Below, one piece after another: positions 20,801 to 23,800 of a DNA stretch of 64,000 bases (its first letter is position 1; the number at the start of each line of letters is the position of its first letter). The stretch is from Escherichia coli. Lineage in GTDB: Bacteria > Pseudomonadota > Gammaproteobacteria > Enterobacterales > Enterobacteriaceae. The stretch lies in the NCBI RefSeq assembly GCF_965641715.1, contig NZ_OZ282453.1; one strand, given 5' to 3'. A program made the position numbers.

Positions 20801-23800
20801 TTTGGTCTGGGCGATCCCCACACCAACAGTAAGATGGGTACGTTGTAGCACCGTTGCGCGAATTTCTCTGCCAAAGTCAGTCAGATCGCGACAATTACGC
20901 ACACCTGTCAGATCGCAGAATGCCTCATCAATACTGTAAATCTCGACGCGGGGCGATAGTTCTTCCAGCGTCGACATCACCCGATTGCTCATGTCTGCGT
21001 AAAGCTCATAATTGCTGCTAAAGCAAACCACGCCACAGCGACGAAACAGATCTTTTTGTTTGAACCAGGGATCGCCCATTTTAACGCCAAGCGCCTTTGC
21101 CTCAGCGTTTCGGGCGATAACGCAACCGTCATTATTCGATAGCACAACCACCGGTTTACCCCATAAATCAGGGCGAAACACCGTCTCACAGCTGGCATAA
21201 AACGCGTTTACATCACAGAGGGCAAACATCAGCGCATCGCCTTAACGACGTGGATCACCACACCAAAGACATCCAGCGTATCTTCACTACTGATGGTAAT
21301 GGGCGAGTACGCGCTGTTCATGGGAATAAGCTGTACCGTCGGGCGTAGTTGCAATTTTTTCACCGTAAACTCGCCGTCAACAGCAGCGATGACAATATCA
21401 CCATGGCTGGCGGTAATAGCGCTATCGACAATCAGTAAATCACCGTCACTAATTCCACCATCAATCATAGAATCACCACTTGCTTTGACGAAGTAAGTCG
21501 CGCTGGGATGCTGGATCAACAGTTGATTCAGATCGATGCGCTGTTCAACGTAATCTGCGGCCGGTGAAGGAAAGCCACACTGAACAAGATCGCTAAATAG
21601 CGGAAAAGTCACAATTTCGCGGAGATCCGCAGGCTTGATAAACAACATAATAATCTGCCTGAAGTTATACTGTTTTTATATACAGTAGTCTGTTCTTGCC
21701 AGCAGATCAATACTGATTCAGGCTATCAATATTTGTCGCTGCATAGATTGCTGATTTTTCGTTCTCTTATCCTGTGCTCACGCGGCCTTCTGGCGACGAC
21801 GCTCATCCAGCAGAAATGAAAAATATCACCCGGCTAAAAAATAGAATAGAAGCATTCGCCATAATGACATTAAACATTGTTTGATATTTATCATATTAAT
21901 AGAAATAAAGACATTGACGCATCTCTCCCGGCTAACTATGAATTAGATGAAGTAAAATTCATTAATAGTTGTAAAACAGGAGTTTCATTACAATTTATAT
22001 ATTTAAAGAGGCGAATGATTATGACTGAAATCGTTGCAGATAAAACGGTAGAGGTAGTTAAAAACGCAATCGAAACCGCAGATGGAGCATTGGATCTTTA
22101 TAATAAATATCTCGATCAGGTCATCCCCTGGCAGACCTTTGATGAAACCATAAAAGAGTTAAGTCGCTTTAAACAGGAGTATTCACAGGCAGCCTCCGTT
22201 TTAGTTGGCGATATTAAAACCTTACTAATGGATAGCCAGGATAAGTATTTTGAAGCAACCCAAACAGTGTATGAATGGTGTGGTGTTGCGACGCAATTGC
22301 TCGCAGCGTATATTTTGCTATTTGATGAGTACAATGAGAAGAAAGCATCCGCCCAGAAAGACATTCTCATTAAGGTACTGGATGACGGCATCACGAAGCT
22401 GAATGAAGCGCAAAAATCCCTGCTGGTAAGCTCACAAAGTTTCAACAACGCTTCCGGGAAACTGCTGGCGTTAGATAGCCAGTTAACCAATGATTTTTCA
22501 GAAAAAAGCAGCTATTTCCAGTCACAGGTAGATAAAATCAGGAAGGAAGCGTATGCCGGTGCCGCAGCCGGTGTCGTCGCCGGTCCATTTGGTTTAATCA
22601 TTTCCTATTCTATTGCTGCGGGCGTAGTTGAAGGGAAACTGATTCCAGAATTGAAGAACAAGTTAAAATCTGTGCAGAGTTTCTTTACCACCCTGTCTAA
22701 CACGGTTAAACAAGCGAATAAAGATATCGATGCCGCCAAATTGAAATTAACCACCGAAATAGCCGCCATCGGGGAGATAAAAACGGAAACTGAAACAACC
22801 AGATTCTATGTTGATTATGATGATTTAATGCTTTCTTTGCTAAAAGAAGCGGCCAAAAAAATGATTAACACCTGTAATGAGTATCAGAAAAGACACGGTA
22901 AGAAGACACTCTTTGAGGTACCTGAAGTCTGATCAGCAATTATTCTCTCCATGTACTCAAGGTATAAAGTTTATCACATTTAAAAATACAGACGTTTTTT
23001 AAAGATTGAGAGTTACCTGTTGATAATAAGGTATCGGGTAACTCTCATTATGACAGAGCGCTTTCAAAAACAGGGCTACGAAATGGCGAGCATCCAGACG
23101 TATATTAAGAAAGCCCCCATCAACATCTATTAAATTTATCACTGCGCCCAGTCAGGTTTATTTAAGATATGATCCTGCCAGTCAATCACTTCTGATTCTT
23201 TCACTGCGATATGACGCACAGAGATACGTTCACCATGCATTGCCGCTTTCGAACCAGTAAGCAGCGGATGCCACGCAGGTAAATCTTTACCTTCCGCCAG
23301 CAAACGATAAGCGCAGGTCATTGGTAGCCATTCGAATGTTGGCAGATTTTCACGGGTTAATTTAATGCAGTCGGGTTCAAACTCGAAACGACGTTCGTAG
23401 TTCCGACATTGACAGGTTTTAATATTGAGCTGGCGACAAGCGACGTTAGTGAAGTAGATTTCGTCGGTGTCTTCATCCATCAGTTTATGCAGGCAACACT
23501 GACCGCAACCATCACACAACGACTCCCATTCCGCATCGCTCATTTCGTCCAGGGTTTTACTTTGCCAGAAAGGTACATCGCTCATCAGGTGTTCCGCCAT
23601 TACGTTAAAACGCACCTTATAACCAGTCTGGCACAGCGATGCAAGTTTTGCCGCCGCTTTCAGGCGGCAAAAAGTATTACAAAACGCGAGTTGTCAAAGA
23701 ATGCCCATCGAAAGTGACTGTCAGCTCATCACCGCTTTGCAACGGGCCGACGCCATCAGGCGTGCCTGTCAACACAACGTCACCGGCCTTGAGGGTAAAA

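Follow-up and report, generated by a model that had tools for sequence, protein, structure and literature searches.

The window analysed here, a stretch of 64,000 nucleotides from Escherichia coli (contig NZ_OZ282453.1), carries the convergent genes hlyE and ycgN, separated by a spacer of 206 bp. The hlyE coding sequence (also known as clyA or sheA) occupies positions 22021–22932 on the plus strand, and that of ycgN, in its 148-aa form, positions 23139–23585 on the minus strand. Both the gene names and the convergent layout given in the initial annotation agree with RefSeq for MG1655 and for an O157:H7 genome, the latter being identical across the queried spacer, and neither of the two annotations places any feature between the genes. 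Two open reading frames were considered as potential genes and dismissed: the 37-aa ORF at 23020–23133 (+) lacks a Shine-Dalgarno sequence and is interrupted by a premature stop in strain LF82 and by a frameshift in S1-NGR-02-A; on the minus strand, an ORF of 47 aa is unannotated. No paper naming hlyE and ycgN together was found in the literature, and no terminator is described in the clyA papers and the review that we examined.

The hlyE gene resides in an AT-rich cassette (21756–23142; 33–46% GC), in place of which Escherichia sp. E1V33 and E. whittamii carry unrelated DNA. Homology with the hlyE locus of Salmonella stops near position 22957 and homology with the ycgN locus of other Escherichia species stops at 23139–23143, limits that delineate ~180 bp of junction DNA specific to E. 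coli (22958–23138). No repeats and no target-site duplication were found at the edges of the cassette. A 15-nt direct repeat (TATAAAGTTTATCAC at 22963 and TATTAAATTTATCAC at 23128) matches at 13 of 15 positions within AT-rich DNA and is probably a chance similarity.

Within the junction DNA lies an 11-bp perfect inverted repeat, reported in the initial annotation and recovered here both by reading the sequence and with a repeat finder. Its left arm (TGAGAGTTACC; 23007–23017) and right arm (GGTAACTCTCA; 23037–23047) are 100% complementary and are separated by 19 nt (TGTTGATAATAAGGTATCG; 23018–23036). The repeat begins 74 nt past the stop codon of hlyE and, on the minus strand, 91 nt past that of ycgN. 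In plus-strand RNA, the stem extends to 13 pairs through a T23018·G23036 wobble and a G23019–C23035 pair, leaving a loop of 15 nt, and the predicted fold has an energy of −19.5 kcal/mol (z −3.8). The minus-strand fold comprises 11 pairs and a 19-nt loop, within which a 4-bp mini-helix can form (−17.1 kcal/mol; z −5.2). Five to six pairs of the stem are G–C, and the arms have a GC content of 45%. Among all 45-mers of the window, the one containing the hairpin ranks within the top 0.6% by folding energy on the plus strand and the top 1.9% on the minus strand. The hairpin is the sole significantly stable local RNA structure of the spacer, as the flanking segments give z scores of −0.8, +0.45 and +0.97; the first of these values belongs to a second candidate hairpin next to the ycgN stop codon (23055–23127, minus strand), which is not significant.

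The window contains eight perfect inverted repeats whose arms span 11 bp or more and whose loops measure 3–40 nt, compared to 0.52 ± 0.64 across 200 dinucleotide shuffles. Repeats of this class thus greatly exceed chance, being enriched ~15-fold, and the five of the eight that were checked, including the one between hlyE and ycgN, are all intergenic. The arm sequence by itself is unremarkable (2 matches versus 0.67 expected), and no further copy of it was found in the 64-kb window at up to one mismatch.

The initial annotation allowed that the palindrome might be a repetitive extragenic element, a suggestion that did not survive the search for further copies. Of 5,426 complete genomes of E. 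coli, 5,410 carry the repeat, at one copy per genome; a 63-bp core encompassing it matches a median of one and a maximum of two places per genome (blastn, word size 11, E ≤ 10; 5,410 genomes). The 206-bp spacer is absent from phages. Its matches in the plasmid collection are limited to Escherichia records predicted to be non-mobilizable, three of which are 4.8–4.9 Mb long and are taken to be chromosomal sequence filed as plasmid. Rfam 15 returned only a spurious match to mir-2076 (19.3 bits versus a gathering score of 90). The broader possibility that the repeat belongs to, or is left over from, a REP/BIME, ERIC or MITE family, or represents a pair of abutted IS ends, draws on its palindromic, intergenic nature, on arms that start with GGTAA as IS1 ends do, facing one another, and on the presence of three IS1-family deletion end points within the spacer. 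Against this, in addition to the copy number, the flanks of the repeat (AAGAT and TTATG) differ and form no target-site duplication, and the cassette edges carry no matching repeat; when both flanks were compared with IS1 ends, they aligned no better than shuffled sequences (p 0.06–1.0). With neither a duplication, nor similarity to IS1, nor a match outside the E. coli locus, a MITE or IS remnant is not recognizable here, and a mobile or repetitive origin can be considered effectively refuted.

The initial annotation had also held that a lack of conservation would speak against a role for the repeat, and beyond E. coli it is indeed not conserved. The repeat is absent from other Escherichia species, Salmonella and Trabulsiella, and no homologue was detected at 80 ycgN loci from Enterobacteriaceae (one genome per species). 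Escherichia sp. MOD1-EC7003 alone retains the first 70 bp of the spacer, followed by an IS1-like deletion; the hlyE loci of Salmonella and Trabulsiella diverge ~25 nt past the stop codon; and further hlyE contigs, with 84–96% protein identity, either carry the same repeat or appear to be mis-assembled. Within E. coli, an identity of at least 99% to the window allele is reached by 6% of genomes in the left flank, by 80% in the core and by 85% in the right flank, and the idea of special conservation of the repeat inside the species was accordingly rejected, given that the core does not exceed the right flank. Two natural variants of the right arm, G23037A in LF82 and G23038A in PS_131_S11, both affect the innermost pairs and leave 9–10 outer pairs intact. 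The repeat is unchanged in B2 strains in which hlyE is truncated.

Could the dyad instead be a site for a DNA-binding protein, as the initial annotation also proposed? An operator for a dimeric or tetrameric protein, be it a regulator, a roadblock or a boundary of an H-NS filament on the hlyE cassette, would account for a perfect 11-bp dyad, and the centres of its half-sites, being 30 bp or about three helical turns apart, would lie on the same face of the helix. A weak promoter-like site with a −10 element GATAAT (23022–23027) is located between the arms. Such spacing, however, is far above that of usual operators, both genes face the site with their 3′ ends, the dyad is disrupted in natural alleles, and no second copy of the arm is present in the window at up to one mismatch; the promoter-like matches (3 versus 1.7 in shuffles) do not exceed the background, and the one in the loop was discarded as a promoter. 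We know of no E. coli motif that matches the arms. Nothing thus favours protein binding beyond the dyad symmetry, set against the 30-bp separation of the half-sites, the location at gene 3′ ends and the dyad-breaking alleles, and we regard an operator as very unlikely. More improbable still is the specific version in which the dyad serves as a roadblock or as a boundary against the spread of an H-NS filament from the acquired hlyE cassette into the housekeeping operon ycgLMN, or in the reverse direction; if this were the case, the three IS1-mediated deletions ending in the spacer would reflect unusual chromatin.

The view of the initial annotation that the repeat is not a standard intrinsic terminator is upheld, because a U-tract is lacking, the loop is large (15–19 nt), the terminator scan gives no match and no Term-seq 3′ end is listed there. 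We required a G+C-rich stem of at least 5 bp, a loop of ~3–8 nt and at least five U in the 8 nt directly after the stem. The stem is adequate (11–13 bp), but the loop, of 15 nt on the plus and 19 nt on the minus strand, is too long, and the absence of an adjacent T-run, also pointed out initially, is evident on both strands, with three T in the first 8 nt past the stem on the plus strand (TTATGACA) and four on the minus strand (ATCTTTAA). A scan of positions 22700–23400 on both strands detected no site resembling an intrinsic terminator. On neither strand is the T6/A6 run placed on the side of the hairpin where a terminator would need it, and a UCUUU motif starts 1 nt past the stem on the ycgN-sense strand. 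By a simple scan, most of the ycgN loci in 80 other Enterobacteriaceae also lack an intrinsic terminator. The hlyE orthologues each have a 3′ stem-loop of their own, non-homologous to the others: that of Trabulsiella is a canonical terminator, and those of Salmonella are hairpins without a U-tract.

Evidence on termination itself comes from published transcriptome data. According to supplementary file 2 of Adams et al. (2021; PMC7815308), a region of termination by Rho lies at MG1655 1229494 (+), antisense to hlyE, with 103 reads upstream and 27 downstream in untreated cells versus 169 and 208 following bicyclomycin treatment (Rho score 4.7, p 4e-12). On the ycgN-sense strand, this coordinate falls at position 22921 of the window, 86 nt beyond the hairpin, and is coarse because the Rho score is computed over 800-nt windows. 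Rho-dependent termination downstream of the hairpin is therewith shown in the literature, on the ycgN-sense strand only, where it is sensitive to bicyclomycin. The curated Term-seq 3′ ends of the same study (supplementary file 1; three growth conditions) include none within MG1655 1229100–1229599, and SMRT-Cappable-seq has no entry in the same interval; a precise, bicyclomycin-insensitive 3′ end of the kind produced by an intrinsic terminator was thus not found. The coverage of ycgN in the Adams dataset is low (103 reads per 800 nt). An association of the repeat with transcript ends, envisaged in the initial annotation, is hence only indirect, through the Rho region ~86 nt downstream on the ycgN-sense strand.

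These data bear on the possibility that intrinsic termination, weak, non-canonical and bidirectional, takes place at the hairpin, with a fraction of the polymerases being stopped on one or both strands, possibly assisted by the head-on collision of convergent polymerases. The position within a convergent spacer, the 11–13-bp stem with its 5–6 G–C pairs and the UCUUU one nucleotide beyond the stem on the ycgN-sense strand are compatible with such activity, and Dar and Sorek (PMC6061677) note that Rho can back up inefficient intrinsic terminators. Nevertheless, the T content after the stem (3/8 and 4/8) is under the scan threshold, the loop of 15–19 nt contrasts with the usual 3–8 nt, the T6/A6 run is wrongly placed for either strand, and the read-through on the ycgN-sense strand is bicyclomycin-sensitive, with no Term-seq peak listed. 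Weak intrinsic termination therefore appears unlikely.

On the ycgN-sense strand, a bubble of C over G (C/G 1.3–1.9 in windows centred at 23053–23001) covers the hairpin and the sequence just beyond it, and the ratio drops to 0.8–0.9 across 22975–22923. The RNA past the hairpin on this strand (22900–23006) is unstructured (z +0.97) and holds the best Rho coordinate, 22921. On the hlyE-sense strand, the RNA past the hairpin runs antisense into ycgN (23048–23290); its first part (23048–23138) is unstructured (z +0.45), the C/G ratio is 1.2–1.8 from ~23081, and we infer a rut-like tract in this segment. Unstructured downstream sequence richer in C than in G, as described by Dar and Sorek (2018), is thus present, with the minus-strand bubble overlapping the hairpin, and the stem itself conforms to the type described by these authors, being stable and not followed by U-rich sequence. 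According to that study (PMC6061677), Rho-dependent transcripts end just past stable stem-loops devoid of a U-tract, with C-over-G sequence and rut sites located downstream, and the ends arise after trimming by PNPase or RNase II.

The reading that we tentatively prefer, at a confidence just short of even, is that the repeat is a lineage-specific protective 3′ stem-loop of the Rho-terminated, convergent ycgN and hlyE transcripts. The repeat would act as RNA, forming a stable stem-loop in the overlapping 3′ UTRs of ycgN (−) and hlyE (+). With neither gene possessing an intrinsic terminator, polymerase would pass the hairpin into unstructured RNA with an excess of C over G, and Rho would end transcription diffusely beyond it; the 3′–5′ exonucleases PNPase and RNase II would then shorten the tail as far as the hairpin, whereby the mature 3′ end would be both set and protected. 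The UCUUU after the stem may contribute weak intrinsic termination on the ycgN-sense strand. Mature 3′ ends would accordingly be expected to map to the base of the hairpin, and either mRNA might be stabilized by it; for the H-NS-silenced hlyE transcript, the account is conjectural as a whole.

The protective stem-loop is supported by the folding z scores (−3.8 and −5.2), the lack of an intrinsic terminator, the Rho region and the C/G ratios, by the match between this architecture and that reported by Dar and Sorek (2018), by the intergenic location of all five of the eight perfect repeats that were checked, by the stem-loops that hlyE orthologues have at their own 3′ ends and by natural variants that spare the outer pairs. 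It is weakened by the absence of a listed Term-seq end or SMRT-Cappable-seq entry at the site, a loop of 15–19 nt that far exceeds those of terminator-like protective hairpins and a restriction to E. coli with conservation no better than that of the right flank. Furthermore, termination of transcripts upon entering the H-NS-bound hlyE DNA would explain the Rho region without any hairpin, and a stem-loop inside a rut site, as implied by the overlap of the C-over-G bubble with the hairpin, would hinder Rho loading.

The main rival, doubtful but a good deal less so than the alternatives above, is that the repeat is a neutral by-product, either fortuitous or fossil, in AT-rich junction DNA that arose as the hlyE cassette was being acquired or rearranged beside ycgN, for instance, through a small local inverted duplication; it may fold in RNA without serving any selected role. 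The ~180 bp in which the repeat resides are linked neither to hlyE (in Salmonella and Trabulsiella) nor to ycgN (in other Escherichia), the window allele is about as widespread as that of the right flank, alleles with a broken pair occur, the repeat stays unchanged in B2 strains despite the truncation of hlyE, no Term-seq end is listed at the site and a single repeat of this kind in 64 kb is produced by chance in ~45% of shuffles. Neutrality is harder to reconcile with the ~15-fold enrichment of long perfect inverted repeats in the window, all five of those checked being intergenic, with the fact that the hairpin is the sole stable structure of a spacer otherwise without a 3′ hairpin for either gene and with its location a short way upstream of a region in which Rho termination has been mapped.

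The hairpin is an ordinary feature that matters little. If it is indeed a protective stem-loop, it represents one more unannotated case of a known E. coli rule, whereby genes without intrinsic terminators have their mature mRNA ends, after termination by Rho, set by a 3′ hairpin devoid of a U-tract, in this instance common to a housekeeping gene and to an H-NS-silenced, horizontally acquired toxin gene. As the native 3′ UTR may add to mRNA stability, the hairpin could then be useful in engineering the expression of clyA/hlyE. The locus also illustrates how acquired cassettes gain, or fail to gain, 3′-end signals. If the repeat is neutral, there is nothing further to pursue.

REP elements are present in hundreds of copies, are GC-rich and share a common consensus. 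The hlyE–ycgN repeat resembles REP/BIME elements in being an intergenic palindrome able to block exonucleases at mRNA 3′ ends, but differs from them in being single-copy and locus-specific, with arms of 45% GC. With the intrinsic or bidirectional terminators of convergent gene pairs, it shares the location between convergent genes and the ability to fold on both strands, but not the U-tract, which is missing on either side; the A/T runs are misplaced, the loop is big, and there is neither a scan match nor a Term-seq peak. The Trabulsiella hlyE orthologue, by contrast, is followed by a textbook terminator, AAAAAGACAACCCGC-N5-GCGGGTTGTCTTTTTTTT. The hairpins of Dar and Sorek (2018) have terminator-like stems and loops, whereas the loop here measures 15–19 nt, and the present candidate would serve two convergent genes and has no steady-state 3′ end mapped at its base. 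Like those hairpins, however, it is stable, devoid of a U-tract and located downstream of a gene without an intrinsic terminator, with unstructured sequence richer in C than in G over and just past it and bicyclomycin-sensitive termination further down on the ycgN-sense strand.

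The 11-bp perfect inverted repeat reported in the initial annotation at 23007-23047 is recovered by direct reading of the sequence and by a repeat finder: the left arm, TGAGAGTTACC (23007-23017), and its exact reverse complement, GGTAACTCTCA (23037-23047), are separated by 19 nt. Its placement between convergent hlyE and ycgN is borne out by the RefSeq annotation of MG1655 and of an E. coli O157:H7 genome, with the hlyE stop at 22932 (+ strand) and the ycgN stop at 23139 (- strand); nothing is annotated in either within the intervening 206-bp spacer, which is 100% identical to its O157:H7 counterpart. 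In MG1655 coordinates (1252415 minus the window position), the repeat occupies 1229368-1229408. In + strand RNA, a U.G and a G-C pair extend the 11 pairs to 13 and close a 15-nt loop (-19.5 kcal/mol; z = -3.8 versus dinucleotide shuffles), whereas - strand RNA forms the 11 pairs plus a 4-bp mini-helix within the loop (-17.1 kcal/mol; z = -5.2). Despite a local G+C of only ~37%, the 45-mer with the hairpin falls within the best 0.6% (+) and 1.9% (-) of the window's 45-mers for folding energy. The flanking RNA is unstructured on both strands (z of +0.97, +0.45 and -0.8), which leaves the repeat as the sole significantly stable local structure of the spacer. The claimed lack of an adjacent T-run holds on both strands (TTATGACA on +, ATCTTTAA on -), and a consensus scan of 22700-23400 found no terminator-like sites. 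A 15-nt direct repeat, TATAAAGTTTATCAC / TATTAAATTTATCAC (22963-22977 and 23128-23142; 13/15 matching), brackets 150 bp holding the inverted repeat; the second of its copies runs over the ycgN stop codon and the boundary of the segment specific to E. coli, and the direct repeat is probably a chance occurrence in AT-rich DNA.

The idea that the repeat is a repetitive extragenic element is refuted by its single copy per genome, the lack of phage matches to the spacer and the lack of an Rfam family, the only Rfam match for the repeat being spurious and sub-threshold. A single copy of the spacer (at least 95% identity) is present in 5,414 of the 5,426 complete E. coli genomes, and the 63-bp core around the repeat (22996-23058) is found at a median of one place per genome and a maximum of two (blastn, word size 11, E<=10). 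Fourteen 'plasmid' matches to the spacer, all from Escherichia records predicted to be non-mobilizable and three of them 4.8-4.9 Mb long, are interpreted as chromosomal sequence deposited under a plasmid label. An IS or MITE remnant was rejected, given no target duplication and no repeats joining the edges of the hlyE cassette, as was an IS1-end remnant, similarity to IS1 ends being no higher than in shuffles.

Comparison of the window with ycgN loci from one genome per species places the repeat in DNA peculiar to E. coli. In Escherichia sp. E1V33, E. whittamii, E. albertii and L009, a divergent 'E. coli' lineage, homology ends a few bases from the ycgN stop (23130-23143). It restarts in E1V33 and E. 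whittamii ~100 bp upstream of umuD (21752-21755), so that unrelated DNA takes the place of the 1.39-kb AT-rich hlyE cassette and of the repeat within it; the E. albertii and L009 loci show no homology downstream of ycgN. The loci examined from Citrobacter and Klebsiella place ycgN in direct convergence with dsbB. Escherichia sp. MOD1-EC7003, the closest relative, retains 70 bp of the spacer, followed by an IS1-like remnant and a deletion extending to the last 45 bp of umuC, and the hlyE orthologues of Salmonella (adjoining osmC) and Trabulsiella share only ~25 nt past the stop with E. coli. Because homology to both ycgN loci and hlyE orthologues stops at its edges, the ~180-bp segment at 22958-23138 that contains the repeat is E. 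coli-specific junction DNA.

Within Escherichia, the region that follows ycgN is hypervariable (window 21756-23142; comparison loci L008 3444-5261, L011 3444-4453, L012 3448-6432 and L009 3457-6444). It holds the hlyE cassette and umuDC in E. coli, AT-rich DNA without long ORFs in E1V33 and E. whittamii, porin and Bor-like lipoprotein genes resembling a prophage remnant in E. albertii, and an ORF for a 418-aa methyltransferase-like protein in L009. Three independent IS1-family insertions/deletions removing hlyE each have one end point in the spacer, at ~23094 (L003, PEC41), 23004/23005 (L098, FELIX_MS533), only 2 bp from the repeat, and 23068 (L010, MOD1-EC7003), which suggests an IS1 target hot spot in AT-rich DNA.

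Under the main rival explanation, which we regard as possible but rather doubtful, the repeat would be a neutral by-product of this junction DNA. Its arm word alone is unremarkable in frequency, and a single perfect inverted repeat of at least 11 bp with a 3-40-nt loop is expected in ~45% of shuffled windows. As a class, such repeats are not due to chance, since the window holds eight versus 0.52 +/- 0.64 in 200 dinucleotide-preserving shuffles, and all five compared with ORF positions, this hairpin among them, lie between ORFs. The other four (8396-8443, 48636-48686, 35012-35047 and 37990-38027) comprise two of 11 bp with large loops (26 and 29 nt), one of 15 bp forming the most stable 45-mer in the whole window (-34.6 kcal/mol) and one AT-rich repeat of 14 bp with a 10-nt loop. 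Within E. coli, the repeat is no better conserved than its right flank, as 80% of genomes match the window allele at 99% identity or better over the core versus 85% over 23059-23121; the figure for 22933-22995 is 6%. There is no sign of purifying selection on the repeat, and allele variation is too scarce for a covariation test. G23030A, in the loop, occurs in four strains, all with truncated hlyE, and G23037A (LF82) and G23038A (PS_131_S11) disrupt the innermost pairs, which become C.A in + strand RNA and G.U in - strand RNA, while the 9-10 outer pairs are unaffected. The small ORFs that overlap this stretch were dismissed, as they are not conserved as ORFs. The proposal of a protein-binding site is unsupported: half-site centres lie 30 bp apart, an operator would sit at the 3' ends of both genes, natural alleles break the dyad, and a promoter-like match with its -10 in the loop does not exceed shuffles. 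The dyad is not known to match any E. coli motif.

Bicyclomycin DirectRNA-seq maps a region of Rho termination antisense to hlyE, its best coordinate being MG1655 1229494 on the + strand (Rho score 4.7, p 4e-12); reads in 800-nt windows upstream/downstream number 103/27 in untreated cells and 169/208 with bicyclomycin (PMC7815308). This position corresponds to window 22921 on the ycgN-sense strand, 218 nt past the ycgN stop and 86 nt past the hairpin, and therefore ycgN-sense transcription crosses the hairpin and is ended by Rho. The ycgN-sense C/G ratio is 1.3-1.9 in windows centred on 23053-23001, over the hairpin and just beyond, and drops to 0.8-0.9 farther downstream; the hlyE-sense ratio is 1.2-1.8 from 23081 on, in RNA antisense to ycgN. 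Across 80 other species, a simple scan rarely found a canonical terminator close to ycgN: only a handful have one within 100 nt.

The likeliest reading, which we put at somewhat under even chances, is that the repeat is a lineage-specific protective 3' stem-loop. The argument is strongest for ycgN, and for hlyE it is plausible at times when this H-NS-silenced gene is expressed; UCUUU on the ycgN-sense strand might also allow some weak intrinsic termination. We count as support that hlyE orthologues each carry their own non-homologous 3' stem-loop: Trabulsiella has a textbook terminator that is bidirectional, S. salamae has hairpins lacking a U-tract, and in S. enterica a stem of 7 bp closes an 18-nt loop. 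Against the protective stem-loop stand the unusually large loop, the coarse Rho coordinate, the missing signature of selection and the lack of a 3' end mapped at the hairpin, there being no curated Term-seq 3' end in MG1655 1229100-1229599 under three conditions (Adams et al., 2021; PMC7815308). Furthermore, termination on entry into H-NS-bound hlyE DNA could by itself account for the mapped Rho region.

The Trabulsiella guamensis terminator (L091 3453-3492) follows an hlyE orthologue in a different context, with DUF333 and pyruvate:ferredoxin oxidoreductase genes on either side; the aligned E. coli position reads AAAAATACAGACGTTTTTT and might be a terminator of this type that lost its stem. 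Nearby, the umuC/dsbB hairpin AAAAAAGCGCTCCCGCAGGAGCGC (19925-19960; MG1655 ~1232468) is a canonical terminator, at which Adams et al. (2021; PMC7815308) place the primary 3' end of dsbB, antisense to umuC; in MOD1-EC7003, which lost umuDC, a remnant of the umuC 3' end survives beside it. Two HlyE-family proteins, P0086 and P0097 (51-53% identity), are recorded under the fungus gnat Pseudolycoriella hygida, and one of them is encoded on a 155.8-Mb contig. They could reflect horizontal transfer into the insect or contamination; further homologues are named from Microcoleus, Variovorax, Laribacter and Rahnella.

Overall, the repeat is genuine but unremarkable. It represents a known type of 3'-UTR hairpin, unannotated, present in single copy and confined to one species, or it may be of no significance at all. 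In Rho-dependent E. coli transcripts, steady-state 3' ends lie just past stable stem-loops without U-tracts, which are closely followed by C>G sequence and rut sites, and these ends are made by PNPase/RNase II trimming of diffusely terminated tails (Dar and Sorek, 2018; PMC6061677). The protective stem-loop reading is put forward because the layout of the hlyE/ycgN hairpin matches this description of Rho-dependent transcript ends.
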